DNA of 62,879 nt, the filler included, from Collodictyon triciliatum (taxonomy: Eukaryota), in NCBI GenBank assembly GCA_043381765.1. It is 13 parts of 13 records of this genome, joined end to end, with 100 filler letters (N's around TTAATTAATTAA, not from the genome) between each part and the next. Parts side by side here need not be neighbours in the genome. Positions count along the whole stretch, not along the records: positions 19,664 to 24,476 come from JBHJMP010005736.1; 12 more parts are not named here. One strand, given 5' to 3'. Position numbers and translations under genes: made by a program. Below the pieces are notes generated by a model that did no database searches, had not been told where the DNA came from, and saw nothing but the letters and a program-made list of their open reading frames with translations. Numbering within the stretch: the stretch's first letter is position 1; every line of letters starts with the position of its first letter. Of the stretch, positions 4,712-52,650 are shown one piece after another.

Positions 4712-4864
4712 TTTTTTTGTTTTTTGTTTTTTGTTTTTGTTTTTTTTGTCTTTTTGTCTTTTTGTCTTTTTGTCTTTTTGTCTTTTTGTCTTTTTGTCTT
4801 TTTGTCTTTTTTTGTTTTTTNNNNNNNNNNNNNNNNNNNNNNNNNNNNNNNNNNNNNNNNNNNN

Positions 4865-4876
4865 TTAATTAATTAA
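4865..4876. other. Artificial scaffold linker TTAATTAATTAA inside N runs (first of 12)
   Basis: Identical 12-mer, giving stops in all six frames, embedded in Ns at 4865, 9781, 14695, 19608, 24521, 29432, 34338, 41567, 46473, 51376, 56282 and 61206. Confidence 0.97.
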
Positions 4877-4978
4877 NNNNNNNNNNNNNNNNNNNNNNNN
4901 NNNNNNNNNNNNNNNNNNNNTTTTTTTTGAAAAAAGAATGAAAAAGAATAATGTGGTACCACTCATACGACCTCATAG

Positions 4979-8874: not shown

Positions 8875-9836
8875 CCCAACTTATCTGCCGTGAAGAAGGG
8901 CAGTCTCAAAACAGAGCACCACGCTCGAGCTTAAAATCCACGAGATACCATGCTCCCCTTGATTCACAGAGGATCGACATGGACAACAGACATAAAATGC
9001 AGAATGAGAAGAATGCCTTCCAAAAACATAGATGAGCATCACTCCTTCTTGTATATTGACATATCTATTTATTACTGAGTAGAAAAAAAAATTATTTTCA
9101 AGAAACGCGCGTATATTCGCCATTTATATTGAAGAAGAGAAACCTTTTGAGGCAACGGAATATAACTCACTTCTATGGCGATTGAGCGCGTTCGCACGAA
9201 GGCACAAATTATGTGGGATTTCTTCCACTCTCCATCTTATTTTTTTCAGCAAGAGCTAACCATTCCTGCTCGGCACCAGGAAGCTGATTTGAGGTGTTGC
9301 TTGCGCTTCTTCTATGAAGGGCGTCGGCTTTGCTTCGATTCCTCATCAGAACAAAGAAAGGGTACCTGATGTCACGTTTCTACTAGCGTCGTCCTCCCAT
9401 GTAGGCAGAAAAAGGGTTATAGGCGTGAACCATGTGCGTTGGGCGAACTGCCACACAAATCACCTTCAACGGTCTTGACCTGAACAAGATGCGCTGGCCT
9501 GTGTCCTCTTACACTAATCTGTCGCAAACCCAGTCCTGCTGTCGATGGACTGCCTGGCACAAAGACAAAGACAAAGACAAAGACAAAGACAAAGACAAAG
9601 ACAAAAAGCAAAAAGCAAAAAGCAAAAAGCAAAAAGCAAAAAGCAAAAAGCAAAAAGCAAAAAGCAAAAAGCAAAAAGCAAAAAGCAAAAAGCAAAAAGC
9701 AAAAAGCAAAAAGAAGGAAAAGTTAAGCTACATGACNNNNNNNNNNNNNNNNNNNNNNNNNNNNNNNNNNNNNNNNNNNNTTAATTAATTAANNNNNNNN
9801 NNNNNNNNNNNNNNNNNNNNNNNNNNNNNNNNNNNN

Positions 9837-14650: not shown

Positions 14651-14750
14651 NNNNNNNNNNNNNNNNNNNNNNNNNNNNNNNNNNNNNNNNNNNNTTAATT
14701 AATTAANNNNNNNNNNNNNNNNNNNNNNNNNNNNNNNNNNNNNNNNNNNN

Positions 14751-16804: not shown

Positions 16805-19173
16805 TTATATTGTGATGTTTGGGCGACACGATTCGGGACCATACAGCGACAGGATTTGACTTGCTGGGATTCTTGTCTGCTTCATAGAATCTCTCTCGCG
16901 AACAGTCACTGTTTTGTCCTCTAGGGTCTGATGGTCAATGGTAATGCAATAAGGTGTCCCAATTTCATCATGGCGGCGATAGCGGCGTCCTGCGGCGATA
17001 AATATTACCTTAATACTACCTCTATTATATATATATATATAATCGCGTATGTATATGCTGAGACAGCCGTTATAGTCTTCTTGTTAATTTTATTCGTACT
17101 TGCTTTTGTGGCAAAAATAAATAAATCTGTGCGATGAGAGAGCATAATTGATCAGTGGTATTAGACTTTTAATTATCAAAGTAATTATTTTTGGAAGCGT
17201 ACCAATAGCCCCTTGTGTGTCGTAATCTGTAGAACTGTATTGTGATAACTGGATTGCAAGATTTTGTGCAACATCAGTCATAGGTGATTTCTTAAGGAGA
17301 GGGAAAACAGCGAAACGGTATGGAGAAATAGAAGGATGAAGCTTCAAGACGGTTCTCTCTAATGATTTTTCGACAGAGTATAATTGGTAACATTATCAGT
17401 ATAATTACTATGATTATGGTATTTGCTAATCATAAAATAAGATATATTTAAAATACACACACAAAAAAAATGGCAAAATCGAAGTCCGAATTTAAATTCT
17501 ACAATATCGTATAATCGGTTAAAGTTAAACCTTCCTCGGTTCCTGGGTTTTCGACATGGTAAGCATCGCAAAGGACAGAGAAAATAAGTCTATCAACACC
17601 GACAGAGGGCTCTACGACATGAGGATAGTACTTTTCTTTTGTGACCTATTGAATACCATTTTCATGATGGTGATTAAAAGTAGACAAAAAAAAATGATGG
17701 CATCACGAACTTAAATAAATGCATATAGAATAACCAAAGATGACATATTCATCTAATTGAGCCCTGTAAAAGTCTATATCAATATTACACCATTTACGTA
17801 CCAAATCAGTATATTTCAGGTCTCGGCCTGAATGTTCTCCGTGACTCCTCATGTCGAAATCTCCTCTATGTGCAATCCCCCATAACTCCCCCCATCCAAA
17901 AGGAAATTTATATTCGATGTCATATGCCTCATCTGAGTAATGAGCCAGATCATGTTTTGAGTGCTGTTCATATCACCGAGGAGGATTAACAATTAGCGTG
18001 CTGATTACTAGTTAGAATTTATCTCATTCGATTATGATATACCCGATAAAAAGAGCAAAGCGCCTTGGAATCTTGTATGTATTTACATTTTTTTTCCTTT
18101 GTATGTATTTACATGATTATTAGAGAAAGACCTCATGAATCCGAAGATTTTTCGGCTTCACGCCAAGATCCAAGAGCCAGGAGTAACAGAAATCCTTCCA
18201 GTATTTTATCCTTATAGACCAAATTAACCACGGATATGATTTAATTTCTTGACAAATATGAGTGTTTAGAATGACAAAAAAAAAATGTACAAAAGAAATT
18301 TCCAAAGTCAGGAGCCCATGTGTACCATGTTTTAGCATCGCTTGGTTTTACAAAGAACTCGAGTTCCATCTGCTCGAATTCTCTCATCCTGAAAATGAAA
18401 TTACTGGGGGTAATTTCATTGCGAAAAGCTTTTCCTATTTGTCCAATTCCTGAAAAGGAGGATTATAAGTGGTGTAAGAATTAATCAGACACCAGGTGTA
18501 AATAAATCACATAATATCAACCATTTTTCTTCATCTCCACTAGCCTCCATAATATATTTCTTTGTTGTCATGTAGTGGCAAAGAGGAGAGAAAAACAACG
18601 TTATTCTACCGAATGGAAGCGTTTTGCGGGAAATGCGGATGGCGTGCTCAAAGTTCATAAAAATCCCTTGAGCGGTCTCGGGTCGGAGGTAAACGAGATT
18701 TGCAGAGTTTTCGACAGGTCCCATGTGAGTTTGGAACATTAATTGGAAGGAGTTGACATCTGAATAAAGGCGATGAATGAGGAAAGGAAAGAAAAATTAG
18801 AATAAAATTAATTGCATCATATGATTTCATTGTATCAAACTTATGATATGTTATACGTGTATAATTCTTGATTATTTTATTTATTTCTTTGAATTTATGA
18901 ATTGATGTAGTAAACTTTATCATAAAGTATATCATCTACGAAAGTTTAACTGTTAAAGTGTTCATTCATATCTTAAGACACATAGACACAGTAATAAATA
19001 TATAGTACATAGATATGATTAGCGATATTTAACCTGTCAAATCAACCGACTGGCAATTAGGGCATTTAATTTGATTGTCTTTAATGAATTTGGATAATGC
19101 TTCGTTCGAGTTTTTTGGAAGTTTGCTATCTGGACGATTCGATTTAGCCCATTTTTCCACTAAATGGTCTGCT
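16805..19173 (-). CDS. Glycine-tRNA ligase, alpha2 dimeric type, compact and bacterial-like (probably mitochondrial), 5'-truncated
   Basis: Motifs [85 protein letters not shown] and [20 protein letters not shown]. The junctions checked are GT-AG. Confidence 0.95.
18073..18114 (-). mobile_element. 10-bp tail-only insertion with 16-bp TSD, in a GlyRS intron
   Basis: ttgtatgtatttacat at 18073-18088 and 18099-18114 flanks tttttttcct (aggaaaaaaa on the minus strand). Confidence 0.55.
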
Positions 19174-19663
19174 CTGTTAAGGTGGATGATAAGGTATATT
19201 TCAATACAAAGTCGAATGTGGTATATTCTTATATATACATGGAACCCAATGGCAAGTAATATCAATATTGGTGCCTCAAGATATAATGCTTGTTCAAAGG
19301 AATAACACGTGTGTGATAAATATTTGTCTATTTTTAACATTTATGGTATATACACTTTTAAGATCTAAATAGTGTAAATACATATCAGGTACATCGTACA
19401 TTCGTCACAAAAAAAAAATTGAGTTGGAATTATTTATGTAAGAATTCCGTTTAATAAGAAGATAAAACAAACAAACAAACAAACAAACAAACATACATAC
19501 ATACATACATACATACATACATACATACATACATACATACATACATACATACATACATACATANNNNNNNNNNNNNNNNNNNNNNNNNNNNNNNNNNNNN
19601 NNNNNNNTTAATTAATTAANNNNNNNNNNNNNNNNNNNNNNNNNNNNNNNNNNNNNNNNNNNN

Positions 19664-22600
19664 GAAATCAATCTTTGAAAAATCGCTGGGAGCTAAGCAT
19701 GCATCTGTTGCCTCGACAATCCAGTTTATTGCAAACGTTCATCTTGCCAGCGGAAAGTAAGGATTTCTATTTTTTAGATTTTTTTGCAAAGAATAATTGT
19801 TCATTTCAATTTTTTCACGATGTCTTTTGGTTTATATCTTTCAATTGTATGGATGCTACTTAGGGGCTGTGTTTTTTGCATACATAATTTTAATTACAAA
19901 TATATAATGACTTTTATCTTTTATAGGAAAACTGAGGCCATATCATCACTAAAGCAATCGCTGGATATTTTCATATCTGCCCTGGGTGAAAATCATCCGA
20001 ATGTCGTGGCCTGCTATGAGATGATTGGAGAAATCAGCCATGATTTTAAAGAGTATCTCTTTATAGATTATTTAATTTTTAATTGAAAGGGAATTACATT
20101 TACTCATGCTATCTTAGCTTTAAGGGTGCTCTGGAGGCGTATACAAAGACGCTGGATATTCGCATGAGAACGTTGGGCGAAAAACATGCAGATTATGCGA
20201 CTTCCCTCGAAAATGTTGGCAGAACAAATTTTGAACTGAAAAGGTAAATTCCTGTGTTATTAAAATAAAGTATTTTGATCAAAAACATGTTAAAAATAGC
20301 AAAAAATAATTATAATATGCATTTAGATTGGACCAGGTTGTTGAGTTCTTCCAGAAGGCAGCTGCCATCAGAAAGGAGACAAAGACTGTCATATCACTCA
20401 AAGATGGCTCACAAATTGACAACATTATCCGACTGATGAATGACAAGGAAGAGCATGAAATATTAATCATTCTTTACAAAACACGGATTTATCACTTTAA
20501 AAAGCTTTACTTCGTGGATTATCTTGGAATATGCAACAGCTGTGAGGAAATCGACAAGATTTACAAGGAACTGAAGCAGCATAATGAAGCAGTGGCATTC
20601 TGGACTGATGTGAAAGACAGATTTGCAGATAAACTCGGATGGATTCACCCCAGAACATTAAATTCGTGCGAATACTTGTCCGTCCATTCAAAAGAAATTG
20701 GAATCAACAAAGAGCCTGTCGAGTTTACAAGAGTCAAGGAATTCATCTGTGAAACACTTGATGATGCAAAACTGGATGAGGAATGGAATTGTAAGCAAAT
20801 CATTACATCTTTATTCAGAATTGTGTACATGTCAAAGACTGATGAGAGCAAAGCAAAGGTTGCATCTAATGCAATCACACTTTTGAATTTCATGAATGTT
20901 TTGTTCGCTGGGATGGATTTATCAAACATCAAAATTCCTCATGCAAATCTGAGTAAATCAATCCTTGATGGTGCAAATCTCACTGGTGCCAATTTGGATG
21001 GTGTTGATTTCACAAATTCGATGCTTGGTGATTGTGTTTTTGATAATGCGCATATGAATAATGTGAAATTCGGAATTCCCCATGATAAATTGGAAGGACA
21101 TACAAATTATGTCAGTAGTGTTTGCAATATTCAAGGACCGAATGGTGAAAAATGGTTGGCTTCCGGAAGTGGTGATAAAACAATACGTATTTTGAATGTA
21201 GCCACAGGAAACCAAATCAAAACATTAAATGGACACACAAGAGGAGTCACCAGTTTTCAAGGACCGAATGGTGAAAAATGGTTGGCTTCCGGAAGTAGTG
21301 ATAACACAATACGTATTTGGGATATAGCCTCAGGAAACCAAATCAAAATATTAGAAGGACATACCGATTCTGTCAACAGTGTTTGCAGTATTCAAGGACC
21401 GAATGGTGAAGATTGGTTGGCCTCTGGAAGTTTTGATAATACAATACGTATTTGGGATGCAGTCACAGGAAACCAAATCAAAAAATTAGAAGGACATACC
21501 GATTCTGTTAATAGTGTTTGTATTATTCAAGGACCGAATGGTGAACACTGGCTGGCTTCTGGAAGTTTTGATAATACAATACGTATTTGGGATGTAGCCA
21601 CAGGAAATCAAATTGGAAAATTAAAAGGTCATACATATGCTGTCATGAGTGTTTGCAGTATCCAAGGTCCGAATGGTGAAAATTGGTTGGCTTCTGGAAG
21701 TAATGATAAAATAATATGTATTTGGGATGTAGCCACAGGAAACCAAATCAAAACATTAGAAGGTCATACACGTGAAGTCATAAGTGTTTGCAGTATTCAA
21801 GGACCGAATGGTGAAAAATGGTTGGCTTCTGGAAGTTATGATGGAACAACATGTATTTGGGATGTAGCTACAGGAAACCAAATCAAAATATTTGAAGGGC
21901 ATACAAGAGGTGTCGTGTGTGTTTGCAATATTCTAGGACCGAATGGTGAAATTTGGTTGGCTTCTGGAAGTCATGATTATACAATACGTATCTGGGATGT
22001 AGGCACAGGAAATCATATCAAATCCTTAGAAGGACATATAGAGCATGCCCTTATTGTTTGTAATATTCAAGGACCGAATGGTGAAAAGTGGCTGGCTTCT
22101 GGAGGTCAAGATGATCAAATACAGATTTGGGATGCTGCCACAGGAAACCACATCAAACTGTTAAAAGGGCACTTATGGTCTGTCTATAGTGTTTGCTTCA
22201 TTCAAGGACCGAATGGCGAAAATTGGTTGGCTTCTGGAAGTGGTTATGCAACAATACGTATTTGGGATGTAGCGACAGGAAACCAAATCAAAACATTAGA
22301 AGGTCATACAGATTGGGTCATTTGTATTTGCAGTATTCAAGGACCAAATGGTGAAAAATGGCTGGCTTCTGGAAGAAATGATGGAACAATATGTATTTGG
22401 GATATAGCGACAGGAAACCAAATCAAAACATTAGAAGGGCATACAGAACGTGTCATGAGTATTTGTAGTATTCAAGGACCAAATAGTGATAATTGGTTGG
22501 CTTCTGGAAGTCAAGATAATCAAATACTTGTTTGGGATGTAGCCACAGGAAACCAAACACACAGTCTGCAAAAATCAGAAGTGACCTACACCCAAGGAAA

Positions 22601-22964
22601 ATACCTTGTCAGGAAAGGAAATCCAGATGAAGTCATCGCAGTATTCAACAGAACAAGTGACGCGATGAACATGATTGACACCAACGGAATCCAAGATGCA
22701 AAGACAGTCCAGATTATCGGCCCAAGAAAGCTGCAAGGTGGTAACATCCAAATAAGAAATGTCACAGGATTGAGTCAATTCAACAAATCCCTCCTACTTT
22801 CTATCGGTGCTGCTTCCTTCGATGCGGACTTTGCTGCCCATTGTGAGCAGGGCAAGTTCACCAAGTTCCAGGCTCAAATGTTGGCTGAGTGCTATGAGAA
22901 TGGGTGGGGTGTTGATGAGGACGTTGAGAAGGCGGCTGAGTGGAGACAGAAAGCCACAGCTTAA
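19664..22964 (+). CDS. TPR + pentapeptide + 11x WD40 + Sel1-like protein (NWD/NLR-like sensor), 5'-truncated
   Basis: Three short exons with KLC-like TPRs (LGENHPNVV, LGEKHADYATSLENVG) splice in frame to a 2.6-kb exon (ORF 20328-22964) containing ASNAITLL-pentapeptide repeats, the WD40 array, a GLSQFNKSLLLSIGA motif and a final Sel1-like repeat. Confidence 0.92.
21090..22565 (+). repeat. 11 tandem WD40-coding repeats of 135 bp (one of 126 bp), highly similar at DNA level
   Basis: caaggaccgaatggtgaa..tggttggcttctggaag recurs with a 135-bp period. Confidence 0.95.
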
Positions 22965-24089
22965 CAAGGTAAGTAGTGTAATAAATGCACATTAATATAT
23001 GTTCGTTAATTATATTCATTTTAGATGGAGAGATTCTCTGGGTTTTTTTCAAGCAGGCCACCGCTTTTTTACCACAGAACGCTCCATCAAAACAGAATAA
23101 AACCTTAAAAATGAAGCAGAGCTGGTCGATGTCTGTTGAATCTTTTCTTTTTTCCTTTTTTTCTTTTTCTTTTTCTTTTTCTTTTTCTTTTTCTTTTTCT
23201 TTTTCTTTTTCTTTTTCTTTTTCTTTTTCTTTTTCTTTTTCTTTTTCTTTTTCTCTTTCTTTTTCTTTCTTTTTCTTTCTTTTTCTTTCTTTTTCTTTTA
23301 TTCTGTTAACAAAGAGTTTCCCCTTCCTTGTCTCTCTGTCAGCATGTTTAATTTCAATGAGCGACTAGCCAAACCAGAGAAGTCATTCTTCGCCCAGCCA
23401 TATCACATATCAGCTGTGCTTTGATTATCGCTTTGGATTTCTTGATTCCTTTCTCAGCATGACAGGAATCTTTATTCTTGGCTGTCGCCAAGAAATATCG
23501 CCTTTGATGCAGCATAGATCTAAAGTATCCAACACTCAGCCACTCCCATGTCAAAAGATATCCCGACGAAGCATATAAAAGCCTCGTTTTTATGTTCGTC
23601 TGAAATTCTTTCACGAAAAAAAAAGCGGTACATAAAAGAACGTCCATGATTGCAGAAGCCCACTCTTTGCAATGTGCACGGCAAATAAATGGCAACCGAG
23701 GCGACAATATTTCATCGCTCTAATATGCATATATACGACACCGATGATATATCACAAGACGATTGAATAAGGACTAAGCAAAACTGCGTGTGTAGCTGCT
23801 AATCATTTAGTGTCATGTAAAAATTGAAAAATTGAAAAATTGAAACACGTTAAAAATGAACAAAATGAATAAAAGCAATATTTGAAGTCGCAAAGTTTCC
23901 CTTTGTTGGTAAATCTGCTCGTTCGTAAGGATTCGGAATTCAGCTGGCTACTTGGCTACGTAATGGAACACTTTGCGATAGGCCTGCGCGCAAGGCTCTC
24001 CATTTGCCACTTCCTTATCTTTTCACTTCTCTATTTATCTATTTTTTTTAATGTGCATGCGATGGTGGAGATTTTGGCTTTGGTTTTCT

Positions 24090-24476
24090 AACCATTGTTC
24101 ATATCCAACCTCTCATTAGTCAGAACACCTTCCTTTGAGACAAAGTTCTTCCCAATAACACTTCCACGTCCTAAAGTTATTAATTTCTGGAATGAACTCG
24201 GTGAGAAGGATGTTGTTTGGCCTAATGTATGGAGACAAACACAAGTCAACTTCATGAGACCATCCCTAAGAGTACTCCTCCTGAATATCGTGTGGAAAAA
24301 CCTTCTCACAGGAGAAAGACTCGAGAAGATAACAAAGCAACCATCAACATGTGCTTTCTGTAATAATGACAGAGACTACCTGCTTCACTTTTTCTTTGAA
24401 TGCAGTATTGCAAAACAGGCGTGGAAGCTTGGGATGCGATTGATGTGTGTACCCTCGACCAAATTACACAAACTCA
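24090..24476 (+). mobile_element. Non-LTR retrotransposon (L1/Tx1-like) ORF2 C-terminal zf-RVT fragment
   Basis: W..VW..LLTGERLEK..CAFC..DYLLHFFFECSIAKQAW matches the CCHC zinc-binding region that follows RT in L1/Tx1 elements. Intronless and runs into the scaffold end. Confidence 0.85.
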
Positions 24477-24799
24477 NNNNNNNNNNNNNNNNNNNNNNNN
24501 NNNNNNNNNNNNNNNNNNNNTTAATTAATTAANNNNNNNNNNNNNNNNNNNNNNNNNNNNNNNNNNNNNNNNNNNNTTTGTTTTGTTTTTTTGTTTTGTT
24601 TTTTTTATTTTTTGTTTTTTTTGTTCTTTGTTTTGTTATTTGTTTTGTTCTTTGTTTTGTTCTTTGTTTTGTTCTTTGTTTTGTTCTTTGTTTTGTTCTT
24701 TGTTTTGTTCTTTGTTTTGTTCTTTGTTTTGCTGTTTGAATTGAGATTGGCGAATGGCGGACGAAAGGACAAGCAAATGGTTTGATAGCAACGGCACAC

Positions 24800-29610: not shown

Positions 29611-32600
29611 CTGGGCTGTTTGTTACGAAGATTCGACTCATCGGATTATAATATTGTGTGGCTCTGTAATCCGATGACAAACTTCCACCTACCAGATATA
29701 TATTGGAGTCGATTGCAAACAACTGCCCAAAGACAACCGGAGGCATAGAATCACTCAATTCCTTCCATTGTGTTTGACCAACAGACTTTATATCTGAATA
29801 GATTAATCGTTAGTGAGACTAAAATTTTATTTTGTGTTATTTTTCATTTCAGATACAAACCCATGATCTCCTTATTGATGGGATTTCTTTCAATACAAGA
29901 AACCTTTTATTGGGATTTTTTAAAAAAAAAGTAAAGGTTTAGTTCTTGATTAATATATAAAAAGAAATAATTTGTGTTTTTTGTTGTAAAACTATATATA
30001 TATTTATTGAATACCTGATTTATTTCAGGTTGATAAGTTCCAGATGGACAGGGAATACAATCACCTCGAAAGTTTATGTAATTTTCCTGTTTACAGAAGC
30101 AACCTTCTTCATTGATGTAGAATCCTTTTTTGCAATCTATAGGATTTTTTCCTAGTTAATCTCGTAAATAGTACCAAAAAATGAGATACAAGTTTTGGGT
30201 TTCTCGAAATCCTGTATTACAGAATAATTGAAGATCGAATCCTTGATCAACTACAGCATCGTATGAAACTATAAATTCCAGCCTCGAAACTGAAGATGGA
30301 ATATTTATAACATCCCCTGGCTTCATGTTTTCCAAGGAAAACTAAGGTGTATAAAATCAAAACAACAATTGATTTCATATAATAATATACAATCATTATG
30401 AGACAGTCCCATTGTTATCATTTACTTATCAAAAGATGGAAAATATAAATGAATAATTCCCTTTAGAATGTTTCAGTTGCATTTCTATGAATTTTTCTGT
30501 ATTAATGTAGAGTTGGTCATTAAAGTATTATACCTTGGGTGATTTTTTATCAGAGATTATGATATCTTTGTCACACTTGGAGATTGTTTCGAGAGTAAGA
30601 GTGGCCCCCGTTGATATTCTCAAGTTTTTGACCTTCATAACATTAAATAAAATTAATATGTGCATGACTGTCTTTAAATACACACAGAATATATTATTTA
30701 TATTTCAAATGATTGTCTTTTTGAAACCAGAATAAAATTCGTTTCTTGTATCTCCCATCGACAATTGGTTCCGGGAAAGTAAAGAAAATCCCTGCTTCCG
30801 TCAGATAATAGAATGGATGTGCTGTTAACGATGTTGTAACCACGACACCAGAAGTCATCTTTTCGTTTGTGTTTAATTTTGTGTTGTATTATAAATCAAT
30901 ATATTAAAAACATTTTGGTTAGGATTATATATCTGAAATAGACATTGCATATTTAGTTAAAATTCTAATCTTACTTAATGATAAATTGTAAATAGATGAA
31001 GTCCTCTTTGATAATCTCCTAATACCCCCAGAAAACATATAAATATTTCCCGAGTGAATAACAGATGCTGAGTAGGCAATCAATGGTGCCATCTGTTGCT
31101 GGCCAATAAGCTTTTCCCATTTTTTGGAGTCAACTAAGTTGTAAAATGTTAAAAAAATTCCACAGCCTTTTTAAATGGTAGCAAAATTATACATCCATAG
31201 TGAGATAATTATCTAAACTTCACCAATTTTTTTCTTTTATTTTCAAAAAAAAAATACCATCATATATCCAAAAATCATTGTAAATAATCCCTTGTTTATC
31301 AGTCCCTCCAAATGTCATCAAGCTTTTGTAAAATCCTAGTAAAGTTGTTTGATCCGGTACGTCGACATGGACTCGTCCGATAACTGTCCAATTTCTAAAG
31401 TCTGTATATTTTAACATTTAATTTAATTCAGAATAATCTCTCTACACTTTGATCGGAATGAAGGAAAAAAAATTTAATTTAATTCATTAACATCTAATAT
31501 CTGAATTGGAAGATCATATTACTTCCCTTTATTTATTTCAAATGTTAATTTCAGGTAGGATATTCAATTTTATGTAACCTTTTGAAGAGCATACTATCTC
31601 TCTATCCTTAGGGTTATCGCTCAGCCAAGTATCAATGAAGCAGAAATTTCTATTTAACGAAAATCCTTGTGGTCTCTTTCGAATGTAGAGTCCTTTTGTA
31701 TCCGAAAAAACAGGAAAGGCAGCATTATTGTCAAGATCGAATACATATGTTGCATTCGATGTCTGGCTTCCTTCTGCATTTGAACCTCCCCAAATTAGCA
31801 TCTTGGAATCAATAACACAACTAGCAGCATTATATCTTATCCCAGATTCATAGACTGATGGATTCAGCCCTTCCCAGTTACTCCAAGTTCTCGTATCTAA
31901 TGGTTCATGTTTAAGATATGATATGTAAATATTGTTTTTATAAATATATTGTAAATCGATTGATGGCCACAAATCATGTCTTACTGATTGAGAATATTTT
32001 AAATACGGGATCAAAAGGCCATTTATAGAATCCTCCGATTAGATACAGATTTCCTTTATATCCTCCAAAAGCCTTTTTTTAAAAAGCAAGAAATATTTCA
32101 AAGATAAATTCTTGAACACATTTTTTTTATTTTTTTTAATGTGATTCACAACCATTTTGGATGGTCAGTGATGAATTTTAAGTACGTGATTTGATCTTAC
32201 AGCATACAATACAGCAGGAGCACAATTCGATTCATAAGGAAAACAGATAGATTCTTGTACAAGCCTTTTCCATTCTAGTTTTACTGTAAAACAAAATAAA
32301 CTGAGAGGGTTAATAATGCAATCAGAATAGTTTATTGATTGATACAAATGATGCAAACGATGGCTAGAGAACCAAAGCCAACATCTTCATCATCCTGCAC
32401 AAAATTGAAAGGAAGAATAAAAAAAATTGATTGATACAAAGGATAAATTTTGATTAAGATTCTTAAATAAAAACCTGTATCATAACTCCAGAGATCATTT
32501 ATTGGTTGAACCGTGTATTGTTTTGTTTCTCCTCCAAACATGTATATTTTACTTCCTGAGATTGATGTAACATGAGGACTTAGTCTTCCAATAGGATATC

Positions 32601-46371: not shown

Positions 46372-46748
46372 CTTTAACCCTGCAATCTCGAAAATTCACC
46401 TGGAAACCGTTCGCTGATACTATATTTGNNNNNNNNNNNNNNNNNNNNNNNNNNNNNNNNNNNNNNNNNNNNTTAATTAATTAANNNNNNNNNNNNNNNN
46501 NNNNNNNNNNNNNNNNNNNNNNNNNNNNAAAAGGAAAAAGAAAAAAGAAAAAAGGAAAAAGGAAAAAGGAAAAAGGAAAAAGGAAAAAGGAAAAAGGAAA
46601 AAGGAAAAAGGAAAAAGGAAAAAGAAAGAAGAAAAAGAAAGGAAAAGAAAAAGAGCAAAAAGAGCAAAACAAATCTATTCGCATGCTATGCCTAACCCAG
46701 TGCTCTCACCAACTTTCTGTGGTGCTAAGGCTGTAGGACGGCGCACAC

Positions 46749-48623
46749 ATGGCTGCGGAGCCATCCTCTGAAATGACATCGTCTATGAACACAGAAATAT
46801 TAAGTCAGGATATTCCACCAGCAGAAGGGGCTCGGAGAGAAGCATGGGGCCTCCGTGGGAAACCTCAGCAACAAAGACAGTTAGACACACAAAGGTCATC
46901 TGTAATTAGGTTGACACTTGAAAAAAACACAAAAAGGATTCAAAGGAGAAAGACCGTTCTCACACTTATCTTGCGCGATGAGAAGCATCTGAACACAGTC
47001 ATATCTTTTTACAAGCGAAGGCCCACCACTTACCTGTTGGCAGTTTTGTGGTTCCTGTGTACAGTAAACTCTCTCTGCATAAGCTTTAACAAACCTCTGC
47101 TTTCTGCTCGCCTGTATCTTCCGATGCAAATGGTTTACACCCTGGGTTTTTTTTTCCAGCACGCAATATTCTTGCGAGTGGATATCATAAGGGAGCTAGC
47201 ACGTTCTTTCAACTTCTGGTTTACTGTGTTTAACACAGTTTCCTTTCACTGCTGCTACATCGCGCTTTGGGGCCCCAACATAAATGTCCTTTGCATGGTA
47301 ATTCATTCCATATCCAGTCTGTGCATCCTAATCTTATACGATGCCCATGCCGCGAAACACCCCTTTATTATAAAGTATGCGACGCTGGTTGGATTGGTTT
47401 CATATATACCCATATTTGTGGTTCTGGTGCTGCAATTATATCCCTTCCAGGAAGAAAAGGTTCGACTCCGCACAACTGGAATGGAAATAATGAACATAAG
47501 GCTTCAAGCAATAGACAATCTAACGACTGTGTTTGTCTATATTCTGCGCATTATGTATTACCATGTTATCCTCAGGAAAACAACAACCATCGCCTTCTTG
47601 TCAGATTTTTACGAAGTGGACCCCAGCATCTGGTCACACAAAGCGCCCATGATAATCGAAGATGGACCTCCAGTCTTTGATGCTGTGCAACACATTACCG
47701 AACAAAGCACATCAGCAACCATAGTTTTTCTCGCAGAGAGCACAAAATCACCCTCACCACCGGATTGTGGAAGTAACTTTATCAAAGAATTGAAAAGTGA
47801 GCCAACCTTTGAAAACAGGTGTGGTAACAGCAGAGATAGAGATGTTCATGACAAGATTGAGGAACCTAGGGTCATGAATCACCCTCGTGAGTTAACGCTT
47901 GTTATTGGGATTTTAGAAGCACAAACAGTGGAGTATGATTTACATCACACTCTTTTTCACCGAGTAATAAGACTAAAATACCCGCGCATCGCTGCCATTA
48001 TTAAATCGAGGCACTACAACATCATGGCCATAGTTGTAAGTCTCTCGGCAACGTTCTTTTCGTGTGTTTTGTCCACAGGTATACACTTGGGAGAAGATTT
48101 CCGATTGACTGGAATAATAGTGACCTCGGTGGGTATAGTACTGGTGTGCATGCAGATAATCATAACGTGTAACTTTACCATGTTTCGGTACATGACCCAC
48201 TCGTTCGATTACTGGTATGTCCTGTATCTGGTGCTGAAGGTCATTGTATCATCCGGGGTGCTATGCCGTTGGGATAGCCGCATGGTCTTTTGGGTTTACT
48301 CAGTCTTGACGATGAACTGGTGTATCATGGTAGACACATTCGGACTGAAGTTCCGTACGTCCTCCTACATATCTATCGTCGGGGTGGTATGGGCATTCGC
48401 TGTGGCCGTGCTCTGCAAACTTGAAGTTGGAGACACCTTTGCCCAAGACACACTGGTTGGGTGGCGTGGGAATGTTATCTTCTCTCCTCGAATCACCCTG
48501 TCAACCTCAGCTTTTTCTGTCAGCATCTTTGCCTTTCGCTTCTTCTGGAGCTACTGCAAAAACCCGCGGCGTATTCTTTTCATCACAGAGAACGTCCGAG
48601 TCGAGGCTATCAACGCCGCGTAG
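46749..48623 (+). CDS. Intronless multi-pass membrane protein with two homologous halves, function unknown
   Basis: 624-aa ORF with two hydrophobic blocks separated by a polar loop; IIRELARSFNFWFTVF corresponds to MFRYMTHSFDYWYVLY. Confidence 0.85.
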   Translation: MAAEPSSEMTSSMNTEILSQDIPPAEGARREAWGLRGKPQQQRQLDTQRSSVIRLTLEKNTKRIQRRKTVLTLILRDEKHLNTVISFYKRRPTTYLLAVLWFLCTVNSLCISFNKPLLSARLYLPMQMVYTLGFFFQHAIFLRVDIIRELARSFNFWFTVFNTVSFHCCYIALWGPNINVLCMVIHSISSLCILILYDAHAAKHPFIIKYATLVGLVSYIPIFVVLVLQLYPFQEEKVRLRTTGMEIMNIRLQAIDNLTTVFVYILRIMYYHVILRKTTTIAFLSDFYEVDPSIWSHKAPMIIEDGPPVFDAVQHITEQSTSATIVFLAESTKSPSPPDCGSNFIKELKSEPTFENRCGNSRDRDVHDKIEEPRVMNHPRELTLVIGILEAQTVEYDLHHTLFHRVIRLKYPRIAAIIKSRHYNIMAIVVSLSATFFSCVLSTGIHLGEDFRLTGIIVTSVGIVLVCMQIIITCNFTMFRYMTHSFDYWYVLYLVLKVIVSSGVLCRWDSRMVFWVYSVLTMNWCIMVDTFGLKFRTSSYISIVGVVWAFAVAVLCKLEVGDTFAQDTLVGWRGNVIFSPRITLSTSAFSVSIFAFRFFWSYCKNPRRILFITENVRVEAINAA

Positions 48624-49043: not shown

Positions 49044-50784
49044 ATGATTGGCCAGAAAGAGCGCAACTTCTTCCGTTTTCTTGTGACTGAGTCATGGGCC
49101 ACATCCTGGCTCATCATCGCGCTGCTTACCGCTCGCAAGCCAAGGTACGGCCTCAAGTATGTCGGTGCATACTTTCTGCTTTCACAGGCTCTCCAACTGG
49201 GTCGCTGGCTTCACAAGCACTTTCTGCGCAAACCCTTGCCAAACTTACCCCGCAAGTATGGAGGATGGGCTCGTGAGTTTGTCTTCTCGCTCATCTGTTT
49301 TTGTTTTATTTTACTGGGCCATGGCCGTGTATACTCACATGCGTGGATTTTGCCATTTTGCTCAGCTCCTTGCAAAGTATGCGTCTCCCTATATTTACTT
49401 TTTGCTCGGGGAGTTGTTTTTTTTTTCCCACCTGTATATATTTTGCCTTTATTCTTTATTATCTGTCATTCTTTTTTTTTTTCATTCATATTTCTCACCT
49501 CGTTTTTCATAACATTATTATTCTATTTATTTTCTTTTTCTGTTCTTTGTTTTGTTTTCCATGCCTTATGTCCATCTTCCTTCCATTTCATCATGGCGCA
49601 GTTGTGACTGGGGCCTCTGACGGTATCGGGCGAGCACTTTCCATGGAACTAGCGCAGCGCGGGTTTCCTGTCATCCTTGTGTCTCGCACCCAGACAAAGC
49701 TGGACTCTGTGGCGGCCGAGATCAAGCAGCGTTTCCCAGAGGTTGGCGTGCGTTGTTTGTGTGCAGACTTTGCTGACCCCGAGAGAAAATGGATCCAAGT
49801 GGTGAAGGAAGGAACGCAGGATGTGGAAGTTGGTGTGCTCATCAATAACGTTGGCTCGGCAGATTCAATCCCCACCAACTTCTTGGATGTTCCAGAAGAG
49901 TTTATGATGCAGATGTTTGAGCTTAATATCTTTTCAGCAACCATCATGACCAGACTCCTTATGCCTCAGATGGTAGCAAGGTAGGCCCCATGGCAATGAA
50001 TATAGTCTTGCTGCATGCAAAATGCATCGTTCTCCAATACAACTCTTGAATGTATGTTTTATTTTCATCGTGGTACAATTCTCAATCTTCGTACAGAGGA
50101 CGAGGTGCGGTGATCAATGTAGGCTCATGTTCGGCAGCTCACCCGACTCCCATGCTTGCGTTATATTCGTCAACTAAAGCATACCTTAGACAGCTGACCG
50201 AGTGTATTCACCACGAGTAAGATTTGGGTCTAAGTGTACGAAGCTTAGCTCCTTTGACTTCATTATGTTCACATATCTATGTATGCATTCGGTATCTCAT
50301 TTGTAGTTGTATGTGACATTTAATGAACGCTTGGTGGATGTCTATTCATTGTAAGATTCATCCCTAAAAGACTAATGGAATGTTGTATGCGATTATAGAT
50401 ACAAAGAAAAAAACATCGACGTCCTACACGTGTCTCCATATTATGTGGTGGCTGAAAAACTTCAAATCGATTTGTGAATATCACTTCTTTTTTTTTGAGG
50501 GGGTCTCTAAATCGATTTCAATCATATCTAATGCAAAGGTCTCCAACTTGAGTAAGATAAAGAAGGCCACCCTGCTAGTCCCAACGGCTGAAACCTTCGC
50601 TCGGGACGCAATGAGAGACTTGGGTCATGGAGAGCCATATTCCAATCCGTACTGGGCGCACGCTGCACTTGAATGGTTTTCCCGCATATACTCGCAAACT
50701 CCTCAACGTTTGCATCTGACCATGAAAAGGTCACGCGAGCGAAATCTAGCGCGAACATCATCCCCACACACAGCATCCTCGTGA
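49044..50784 (+). CDS. SDR, very-long-chain 3-oxoacyl-CoA reductase (KCR/17-beta-HSD12-like), 5 exons
   Basis: GWALVTGASDGIG, VGVLINNVG, catalytic YSSTK and PYWAH motifs; GT-AG junctions in frame. Confidence 0.9.
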
Positions 50785-51547: not shown

Positions 51548-51570
51548 GAAAATAAAATCCCTACAGCAAC

Positions 51571-52650
51571 ATGAAGGAGGAGGAGAAGAAACACGCTCTG
51601 CACCGCCTGGACAAAATCAGCAACGACCTGGCAGCCTTCACAGCGCTCCTTGCAGACTATGTGGACCACGCATCACACCCCCAGGACAATGAAGCAAAAA
51701 CCGAAGCAAAAACCGAAGCAAAAACCGAAGCAAAAACCGAAGCAAAAACCGAAACAAACACGGAAACAAACACCGAAGCCGAAAGCGAGCCCAGCCAAGC
51801 CGACGTCCACTACCGCCTGGGCCGGCAACACGGGGCAGATGCAGCAGAGGCCTTCCAGCATTTCCGCGCAGCCGCACAACTCGGGCACACGGCAGCCATG
51901 TATCGACTGGGCCTCTGCTTCAAGCACGGCACCGGCACGGAACCCAACGCACCGGCGGCTCTCGAATGGCTCCAGCGCGCAGGCGAATCGGGCCACGCAG
52001 ATGCGGCCTTCTATGCCGGGTCGCTTCTCTCGCAGAACGGCCCGCGGCCAAATCCCGCGCAGAAGACGGCGTTTGCGTGGTTTTGCGCTGCCGCCGAGAA
52101 GGGCCACGCATATGCGCAGTATCGCGCGGGATATTGCCTGGCCAAAGGCATCGAGACGGCCCAGGACATGGCCAAAGCCGTCCGCTTCTATCGCATGGCT
52201 GCGGCGCAGGGCGTTGCTGAGGCGCAATGCAGCCTGGCAAACTGTCTCTACAACGGAACCGGGGCGGAGCAGAACTATGCCGAGGCTGTGCTTTGGTATG
52301 GATCTGCGGCCAAGCAGGAGAATCCGTATGCCATGCATGCCTTGGGCATATGCTGCGAGTTTGGGCGGGGGCTGGAGAGAGACCCCGTGAAGGCCGTTGC
52401 GTGGTACGAGAAGGCGGCGCTTGCAAAGATTCCGCCTGCCTTGATGAGTCTTGCTCATTGCTATGAGGCTGGAATTGGCGTGGACAGGAATCTGCGTGCG
52501 GCATTGGCTTTGTACAAGCAGGCTGCTGATGCCGGTGTTACATCTGCAAAGGAAAAGTGTCTCTCGATTCAGCGGGCAAACGCCGCAAGAAGGTCGCTTC
52601 CCTTGCCCCTCCCGCCGTTGTCTAGCGGGGCTGAATCGTCGTCTAAATGA
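51571..52650 (+). CDS. Sel1-like repeat protein, intronless and GC-rich
   Basis: About 7 SLR units (e.g. AMYRLGLCFKHGTG..A..W..RA...G) and an N-terminal EAKT tandem repeat. Confidence 0.92.
   Translation: MKEEEKKHALHRLDKISNDLAAFTALLADYVDHASHPQDNEAKTEAKTEAKTEAKTEAKTETNTETNTEAESEPSQADVHYRLGRQHGADAAEAFQHFRAAAQLGHTAAMYRLGLCFKHGTGTEPNAPAALEWLQRAGESGHADAAFYAGSLLSQNGPRPNPAQKTAFAWFCAAAEKGHAYAQYRAGYCLAKGIETAQDMAKAVRFYRMAAAQGVAEAQCSLANCLYNGTGAEQNYAEAVLWYGSAAKQENPYAMHALGICCEFGRGLERDPVKAVAWYEKAALAKIPPALMSLAHCYEAGIGVDRNLRAALALYKQAADAGVTSAKEKCLSIQRANAARRSLPLPLPPLSSGAESSSK

Follow-up and report, generated by a model that had tools for sequence, protein, structure and literature searches.

The question raised by the locus considered here is whether a tandem array of WD40 repeats in a protist, Collodictyon triciliatum, is the variable sensor of an immune-type receptor or the amplified propeller of an ordinary cellular protein. 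The array occupies positions 21090-22565 on the plus strand of a stretch of 62,879 nucleotides from the genome assembly GCA_043381765.1, which is referred to as the window throughout and consists of pieces joined end to end; the gene itself sits on the piece 19664-24476 (JBHJMP010005736.1). The repeats, or units, differ from each other mainly at codons 6, 7, 9, 28 and 30 of 45, and it is at these five codons that replacements have outpaced silent changes. We consider the array to be the diversifying, ligand-binding propeller face of a sensor resembling the NOD-like receptors (NLRs), i.e. of a signal transduction ATPase with numerous domains (STAND), and give this reading a probability of roughly 60%. 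The array is most likely the sensor of an NLR-like protein because full-length relatives in Diphylleia rotans carry DUF4062, a NACHT-type ATPase, tetratricopeptide repeats (TPRs), pentapeptide repeats and WD40 repeats.

The array is composed of eleven units arranged head to tail, ten of 135 nt (45 aa) and one, unit 2 (21225-21350), of 126 nt (42 aa); cut two codons ahead of each GH, they start at 21090, 21225, 21351, 21486, 21621, 21756, 21891, 22026, 22161, 22296 and 22431. Tandem Repeats Finder reports a 135-nt period across 21251-22557 together with its 270- and 405-nt multiples, Pfam WD40 matches eleven stretches (E 2e-93), and the hallmarks of WD40 proteins, i.e. the GH...WD pattern, four-stranded blades and a propeller fold, are all found. 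A profile derived from the units themselves finds exactly eleven of them in the open reading frame (ORF) even at E up to 100, with no cryptic twelfth or extra blade after unit 11, where Pfam gives only a weak Sel1 match; the 62,879-base window holds no further copy of the unit. The original prediction, made on the DNA alone, of an eleven-repeat array with one 42-aa member thus describes a real feature, but its term “near-identical” was too strong, given a unit identity of 80% at the DNA level and 69% at the protein level. The mean pairwise DNA identity of 0.80 rises to 0.85 when the five codons are left out, and the two closest units, 3 and 4, have 0.90, while protein identity has a mean of 0.69 and a maximum of 0.889, with 1/55 pairs at or above 0.85. 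The likeness at synonymous sites was likewise stated correctly as similarity, but it falls short of identity, as the proportion of synonymous differences between units outside the five codons (pS) is 0.24, which corresponds to a synonymous distance (dS) of about 0.30. Neighbouring units show hardly any more likeness than units far apart (0.81 vs 0.80), a recent duplication is suggested only by units 3 and 4, and exact matches between units extend to 41 nt at most, with no 45-mer repeated. The blades derive from one 45-aa unit via tandem duplication.

Variation between the units is strongly concentrated. Ranked by entropy, unit positions 9, 7, 28, 6 and 30 are the five most variable of 45 (2.91 to 2.37 bits, the next position having 2.19), and positions 45, 21, 13 and 33 show moderate variability. 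The hypervariable codons lie at nucleotide offsets +15..+20, +24..+26, +81..+83 and +87..+89 from the start of each unit, the last two sets being shifted 9 nt earlier in unit 2, and the five residues together give 10 distinct signatures in the eleven units, as units 3 and 4 have one in common. The concentration of change at about five codons had been seen before this analysis, and the residues then listed for positions 6/7/9 and 28/30 as well as the eleven position-28 codons are correct throughout. It had also been pointed out that the third base of the position-28 codon stays T or A, which holds for the codons but is mostly codon bias, because third positions in the array are 76% A+T and 0.76^11 amounts to about 0.05.

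The same positions are known from other WD40 arrays. In HET-E of Podospora anserina, codons 7, 9, 25 and 27 are reported to be positively selected around the conserved codons 8 and 26 (Paoletti et al. 2007, PMC1805685). In the present unit codon 8 encodes the conserved V and codon 29 the conserved D, so that the HET-E equivalents are codons 7, 9, 28 and 30; the offset of three codons arises because the A-B loop of this unit is 3 aa longer. All four equivalents fall within the top five of 45 positions, for which the chance is 5/148,995 by arithmetic. The top-face hot spots R1-2, R1 and D-1, which Wu et al. (2012, PMC3419727) define from the V-R1-R2-V pattern and the tetrad Asp, map to codons 7, 9 and 28, three of the five most variable. 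The suggestion that the variable sites are the equivalents of the selected HET-E codons is therefore upheld.

Pooled Nei-Gojobori estimates of the ratio of nonsynonymous to synonymous change (dN/dS) are 2.1 at the five codons, a value near saturation, and 0.45 elsewhere. A home-made maximum-likelihood codon model of the GY94 type, in which the partitions share synonymous branch lengths, was fitted on two trees, one built from all sites and one from the other 40 codons, and yields a ratio (omega) of 5.3-5.6 at the five codons compared to 0.38-0.39 at all other codons. For the five codons, a likelihood-ratio test with omega=1 as the null has a statistic of 33-36 (p 2e-9 to 9e-9, both trees). Because the five codons were chosen after looking, the test was repeated with site sets fixed by the literature: the HET-E equivalents {7,9,28,30} give a pooled omega of 4.9 (p 8e-8) and the hot-spot set {7,9,28} a pooled omega of 5.3 (p 9e-8). 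By comparison, 60 simulations under a neutral model with 30% neutral sites, in which the top five sites were likewise picked afterwards, never exceeded an omega of 2.16 or a test statistic of 7.3. The pooled omega of about 5 is significantly above 1. The blade scaffold is under purifying selection (omega ~0.4), and at the hot spots 7, 9 and 28 and the neighbouring positions 6 and 30 change is about fivefold faster than at synonymous sites.

A check that does not depend on a tree comes from P0229, a 392-aa protein from the assembly of a public run which is 78% identical to the window protein and colinear with ORF residues 12-356. When its units are compared to the units in the same place of the window protein, 0/13 hot-spot residues are identical, whereas 268/331 of the other residues are (81%; scaffold 72/85, linker and pentapeptide segment 196/246; Fisher p 1.3e-9). 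P0229 has the same linker-pentapeptide-unit junction and the same type of 45-aa unit as the window gene.

Where these residues lie on the protein can be judged from two AlphaFold2 (AF2) models, the first from the single sequence of ORF residues 201-882 (mean predicted local distance difference test score, pLDDT, 66; mostly 65-93 in the array) and the second alignment-based for the array (mean pLDDT 80, predicted template modelling score 0.71). Both place four strands in each unit, at positions 8-15, 21-27, 31-36 and 42-47. In this strand topology positions 6-7 fall in the D-A loop, position 9 opens strand A, and positions 28 and 30 are in the B-C turn, a set that is assigned to the top face by established WD40 topology rather than by measured geometry of the models. 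By the same topology the GPNGE insertion in the A-B loop belongs to the opposite, bottom face. Superposed onto solved propellers with VIA-align, units 1-7 of the first model match 7-bladed propellers (Z 37-41, root-mean-square deviation 1.7-2.1 A, ~283 residues) and units 4-11 of the second match 8-bladed propellers (Z 41, 1.6 A, 320 residues). After unit 11 the pLDDT of the single-sequence model drops below 50.

What kind of protein carries this propeller can be read from its relatives. The whole ORF is matched best, at 31-48% identity, by WD40 arrays in NACHT/NB-ARC proteins from cyanobacteria and fungi, and P0002 (ETO34877.1), a NACHT-pentapeptide-WD40 protein of Reticulomyxa filosa, is 35% identical. 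The linker in front of the array is more telling. It is a family-specific helical segment of ~190 residues (20325..20885), in which a Pfam scan of the ORF finds no family above E 0.01, and when it was searched by itself against 1.84 billion representative proteins, only 4 of 51 matches spanned it as a single stretch: P0178 (2,520 aa), P0179 (2,619 aa, 41% identical), P0015 and the 77-aa fragment P0180. P0178, P0179 and P0015 are all from the D. rotans transcriptome set, and P0015, a transcript-derived protein, is colinear with the window gene from the TPRs through the last residue. Other searches were less informative: ORF residues 1-258 retrieved 57 matches, pentapeptide-repeat proteins only, and missed P0015, while the linker of P0015 scored only 0.83 in the ESM Atlas against cyanobacterial TPR/pentapeptide clusters, which is below the lead level of that tool.

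The most complete relative is P0179, whose N-terminal 973 residues hold a CH domain (E 4e-11), a DUF4062 domain (E 8e-11; residues 379-470, 42.4 bits against a cut-off of 24.7) and a P-loop region matched by NACHT (E 1.3e-5, residues 653-817) that has the RWG tripeptide. The ATPase is followed by TPR_12/TPR_10 repeats, the linker, the pentapeptide segment, ~19 units of 45 aa and the same C-terminal tail as in the window gene. P0015 has TPR matches as well (TPR_12, TPR_10 and TPR_NPHP3) and looks truncated at its 5' end, because its N-terminus is almost identical to the P0179 segment just past the ATPase. The units of P0179 have the same long GP(N/D/Q)GE loop; the 45-aa unit with its GPNGE-type loop, which had looked lineage-specific, is therefore not peculiar to this gene. 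DUF4062, also called TeTIR, is described in two preprints as a TIR-like NAD-cleaving enzyme (NADase) directly before NACHT in TEP1, NWD1, NWD2 and NPHP3, with WD40 or TPR repeats after NACHT and with “a small number” of members in protists (10.64898/2026.05.01.722283; 10.64898/2026.09.21.753143). The C-terminal repeats that mark this class are present in the window gene, where TPR exons and eleven WD40 units occur together. The family is thus NLR-like in architecture, and from its homologues we infer that the window copy belongs to it.

A pentapeptide segment directly before the WD40 array recurs in the NACHT-type proteins P0002, P0061, P0144, P0025, P0088, P0114, P0009 and P0031, named from Reticulomyxa, Paramecium, Mortierella, Mycoavidus, Glomeribacter, a Legionellaceae bacterium and Nostoc; this recurrence is taken mostly from precomputed Pfam lists, with the sequences of P0002 and P0061 read. 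An origin of the window gene by horizontal transfer from bacteria, which was considered as the best array matches are cyanobacterial, finds no support, because the same exon encodes the eukaryote-specific linker and tail.

The gene is not alone. In public data at least three other close homologues exist. Identical units in common with the window gene, for which a search had been proposed, were seen neither in P0229 nor in P0271, the latter a 132-aa metagenome protein of 71% identity. There are at least four distinct close versions, because the window protein, P0229, P0271 and P0180, from four sources, are mutually 57-78% identical. The best share of the sampled words of the contig in any public run is 0.15, and four runs from four studies were compared with the contig at 85% likeness. 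Three of them, freshwater or subsurface metagenomes, contain 58, 117 and 147 matching contigs. The fourth, X4, a small run that is guessed to be RNA, has 404 contigs that are 85-100% alike, of which 58 are at least 99% alike, 118 are 95-99%, 146 are 90-95% and 82 are below 90%. One X4 contig skips 19757-19926, joining 19756 to 19927 with GT..AG ends, which is the intron predicted from homology. Outside the repeats as many as 13 X4 contigs coincide at a single site (22881), and at 20610 and 22881 every one of them differs from the window. These data are consistent with several transcribed and spliced copies close to the window gene; the X4 contigs do not show expression of this very copy, and contig depths are not copy numbers. 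Of the variant letters listed within the array 4/11 fall in hot-spot codons, but these could be other units superimposed and so are not evidence for paralogues, just as joints within the array in run contigs are indistinguishable from artefacts of repeat assembly.

If the array is the sensor of an NLR-like protein, the missing 5' part of the gene would encode a DUF4062/TeTIR TIR-like NADase and a NACHT-type ATPase, as in the colinear D. rotans homologues. By analogy with APAF-1, HET-E and the TEP1-class STAND proteins, the propeller face would bind a ligand that varies, which might be a molecule of non-self origin or a guarded protein of the host, and this binding would free the ATPase to oligomerise, whereupon the oligomerised ATPase would switch on the N-terminal effector. 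New specificities would come mainly from point substitutions at the hot spots and perhaps also from the gain and loss of units. A putative function in immunity or allorecognition would fit such a design.

Several points weigh against the diversifying-sensor reading. A per-site test similar to fixed effects likelihood with site-specific synonymous rates finds 0/45 codons positive at p<0.1 and 10 negative, though with eleven sequences it has no power; because no single codon is positive per site, the selection signal depends on pooled synonymous rates and on a tree, and the dN/dS check proposed for the repeats is positive at the pooled hot spots and not significant at sites taken singly. The codon model assumes a tree, yet the repeats may recombine, and a comparison of blades within one protein cannot tell the diversification of alleles or paralogues from a one-off specialisation of blades. 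P0229, which carries the tree-free check, may be an orthologue, a paralogue or a protein that differs in unit order. As to architecture, the NLR status of the window gene leans on homologues that are 29-41% identical in the linker, its own ATPase and effector being off the contig, and the P-loop domain of P0179 scores just below the Pfam cut-offs (NACHT 25.6 vs 26.7, nSTAND1 24.8 vs 27.1, NPHP3_N 23.2 vs 24.8). The two AF2 models split the eleven blades differently, 7+4 vs 3+8, and leave one propeller incomplete either way. Furthermore, human relatives of this architecture, e.g. NPHP3, have non-immune roles.

The degree of homogeneity in the array belongs to the same list. Scaffold identity is 0.766 among the units of the window gene and 0.794 between them and the units of P0229 (only 2.2 units from one homologue). 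Highly repetitive WD40 proteins are defined by at least 6 of 8 contiguous repeats with all pairwise identities at or above 0.70 (Hu et al. 2017, PMC5587647), and with an internal identity index of 0.690 for its best six units (1-6) the array stays just under this value, at the upper edge of the “moderately repetitive” class of these authors (>=0.4). It is also outside the fungal class of high internal conservation (HIC), for which over 85% identity across at least 100 aa is given (PMC4986451), its mean being 0.69 with 1/55 pairs at or above 0.85. Even so, the array is clearly more homogeneous than its relatives, because P0179 of D. rotans scores 0.42 on the same index.

Next in weight is a quieter explanation, to which we give less than half the credence of the sensor: the gene may encode an ordinary, non-immune STAND or scaffold protein (cf. 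NPHP3, NWD1) in which one blade was amplified, followed by a one-off specialisation of the blades to a fixed cellular partner. Change at the hot spots would then reflect past directional selection or relaxed constraint and not continuing diversification. Variation confined to hot spots, on a conserved scaffold, is a general trait of young repetitive WD40 proteins in bacteria, fungi and protists (PMC5587647), and a consensus drawn from 27 aligned arrays of this WD40 class leaves the same positions without a defined residue. The amplification is not recent, given a dS of ~0.3, there is no gene-specific homogenisation (0.766 within the gene vs 0.794 vs P0229), and no single site is significant alone, all of which sits well with such a protein. 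Against it stands an omega of ~5, which is far above neutral and exceeds all 60 simulations with their 30% neutral sites. Equally unexpected with a fixed partner for each blade is that P0229, at 78% identity, keeps 81% of the other residues and 0/13 of those at the hot spots, and several diverged copies of the gene exist. These observations favour a diversifying sensor face.

The original prediction had gone further and proposed a repertoire similar to that of HET-E, in which units are exchanged within and between paralogues by concerted evolution and thereby generate specificities for allorecognition or immunity. In this full form the model appears improbable to us, although parts of it agree with the data: selection falls on the very positions that are selected in HET-E, eleven units is also the count in the reactive het-R and het-E1 alleles (PMC2873952; PMC12222747), and units 3 and 4, at 90% DNA identity and with one signature, are a recent duplicate. 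The likeness of units across genes equals that within the gene, which family-wide exchange would also yield. But unit identity (69% in protein; 1/55 pairs >=85%) is well below the 80-100% reported for repeats within the gene in HIC arrays (PMC4986451; PMC12222747), a longest exact match of 41 nt between units is a poor substrate for frequent unequal crossing-over, and adjacent units are no closer than distant ones beyond the 0.81 vs 0.80 given above. Neither P0229 nor P0271 has an identical unit in common with the window gene, and the joints seen inside the array in run contigs are ambiguous with repeat-assembly artefacts. A sensor that diversifies chiefly by point substitution, and perhaps by gain or loss of units, is preferred.

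It is very improbable that mis-assembly produced the array by collapsing or chimerically joining units of several paralogues, in which case their order and number would not be real. In favour of such an error, the assembly is highly fragmented, into ~4.8-kb contigs ending in microsatellites, short-read assemblies are known to drop or invent repeats in repetitive NLR arrays (PMC12222747), and there are related copies that could be mixed in. Against it, the frame is open across all eleven units and the flanking domains, the linker-pentapeptide-unit junction recurs independently in P0229, and, with exact repeats of at most 41 nt and every 45-mer unique, the units can be put in order by ordinary reads.

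Exons were placed by colinear tblastn with P0015 and by splice sites read from the sequence. The 5' end of the gene is cut off by the contig start at 19664; the first coding exon on the contig (19664..19757, +) is recognised by its open frame and TPR-like helices. It is followed by a TPR exon at 19928..20052 (+; tblastn to P0015 residues 396-431, donor GT at 20053) and another at 20118..20244 (+; 60% identity to P0015 residues 430-472, donor GTAAAT at 20245, with a start that fits an X4 joint). Upstream of the last coding exon there are thus three short TPR-type exons with introns of 170, 65 and 80 nt, i.e. three introns within 660 nt. The open frame of the array runs from 20316-22964, and the last coding exon, 2,640 nt long and without introns, spans 20325..22964 (+), with the acceptor tttag|ATTGGA colinear with P0015 (ELKR|FDQV). 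It encodes the linker, the pentapeptide repeats, the eleven WD40 units, the C-terminal domain and a TAA stop. The absence of introns from the array, which had been remarked upon in view of an intron-dense genome, is true but not special to the array, as the whole 2.64-kb exon 20325-22964 is equally intron-free.

Within this exon the linker is joined to the propeller by a pentapeptide-repeat β-helix at 20886..21071 (+; Pfam Pentapeptide E 8.8e-11 and Pentapeptide_4, ORF residues 191-252). Behind the array a C-terminal domain of 132 aa (22566..22961, +) contains one Sel1-like repeat at about 22878-22955 (E 7.8e-5, under the cut-off of Pfam); it is conserved in the Diphylleia homologues and 33-45% identical to the C-termini of P0179, P0015, P0178 and P0239. 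Directly after the stop lies a probable 56-nt intron in the 3' untranslated region (22967..23022, +), to which X4 joints point at 22966>23023 (GT..AG) and 22967>23025, both weak with shorter sides of 20-25 letters. The A+T content of third codon positions differs along the same exon, with 76% in the array, 60% in the linker (20316-21089) and 49% in the C-terminal domain; the high value in the array may be a legacy of the founder unit.

The window as a whole consists of 13 pieces split by 100-base spacers (44 N, TTAATTAATTAA, 44 N) roughly every 4.8 kb, the spacers being at 4821-4920, 9737-9836, 14651-14750, 19564-19663, 24477-24576 and so on. The pieces measure 4,803-4,824 bases, except for a single piece of 7,129 bases and the last, which is truncated, and are ordered roughly by size. 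Most of the contigs finish in a perfect microsatellite of ~100 nt. The pieces are separate small contigs chained together, because of the spacers and the microsatellite ends, and the gene neighbourhood across spacers is therefore meaningless.

On the contig of the WD40 gene itself, a fragment of a reverse-transcriptase zinc-binding domain (zf-RVT, E 9e-10) lies at the 3' end (24092-24475, +); it is probably a multi-copy retroelement, because 24106-24476 recurs in two metagenome runs, with 4 differences in a contig of 1,289 nt and 2 in one of 2,038 nt. Elsewhere in the window, a G+C-rich contig carries an intron-free ORF with five Sel1 repeats (51556-52647, +; E 5e-49), a repeat type to which the tail of the WD40 gene is also similar. 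A gene of many short exons and introns at 16805-19340 (-) may encode a glycyl-tRNA synthetase; the one exon scanned, 17706-17972, has no Pfam match. Further features are Kelch motifs at 31541-32038 (-), a short-chain dehydrogenase fragment at 49700-49984 (+), a UVB_sens_C domain at 60347-60745 (+) and an ORF of 628 aa without a Pfam family at 46737-48620 (+).

[quoted passage not shown] They share with the window gene a C-terminal WD40 array on a STAND ATPase (a presumed one here), fast-evolving residues in two pairs that flank a conserved V and D, arrays of eleven units in reactive alleles, and models that show a first propeller and an incomplete second one; in HET-E1, likewise with 11 repeats, three cryptic blades at the C-terminus make up the rest of the second propeller according to AlphaFold 3 models (PMC12222747). 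The window gene differs in its unit of 45 aa instead of 42 and in an identity of 69% instead of 80-100%, in the effector of its homologues, which is DUF4062/TeTIR and not HET, and in the TPRs, pentapeptide segment and Sel1-like tail that the family adds, and its host is a protist and not a fungus. The second comparison is to highly repetitive WD40 proteins such as Npun_R6612 of Nostoc, whose structure (PDB 2YMU) comes first by sequence in the PDB (E 2e-64) and is also one of the top matches by structure (Z 41.4). Here too a young array formed by unit duplication combines a conserved scaffold with diversity at predicted hot spots, but the window gene has an index of 0.690 vs the 0.70 cut-off, a longer A-B loop, and is eukaryotic with introns.

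With the TeTIR/DUF4062-NACHT proteins TEP1, NWD1, NWD2, NPHP3 and TTC41 the family shares, in P0179, a DUF4062 directly before a NACHT-type P-loop, the RWG tripeptide and C-terminal repeats. Described members have either WD40 or TPR repeats, whereas the family of the window gene has both, joined by the linker and pentapeptide segment, and P0179 adds an N-terminal CH domain. Lastly, the pentapeptide repeats stand directly before WD40 in P0002 (Reticulomyxa filosa) and P0061 (Paramecium pentaurelia) and, by precomputed Pfam lists, in proteins of Mycoavidus, Glomeribacter, Nostoc and Mortierella, but these are only 31-48% identical, have 42-aa units and possess neither the TPR block nor the linker or C-terminal domain. 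Among the matches listed, none dealt with genes of the NLR type in Diphylleia, Collodictyon or Reticulomyxa, and a search for literature joining internal conservation, NLR, WD40 and protist found none. The design as such is already known from the Podospora proteins with NACHT and WD40 domains; particular to this case are the protist host, the DUF4062-NACHT-TPR-WD40 family, the 45-aa unit and the moderate homogeneity.

A wider proposal, which we hold to be less likely than not, is that a free-living protist lineage with relatives among the CRuMs (Diphylleia) may keep an expressed multigene family of TIR-like-NADase/NACHT receptors with TPR and WD40 sensors, the top face of which would be under continuing diversifying selection. 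If this is true, a repertoire of the NLR type for innate immunity or for the distinction of self and non-self would have arisen outside animals, plants, fungi and bacteria, and the class of TEP1, NWD and NPHP3 would gain a clear signature of sensor diversification. A conserved scaffold with fast-changing residues at the ligand contacts marks receptors in an arms race, and the animal members TEP1, NWD1, NWD2 and NPHP3 have only recently been tied to NADase activity. A family with a visibly diversifying sensor face would therefore be tractable for asking what such receptors recognise.

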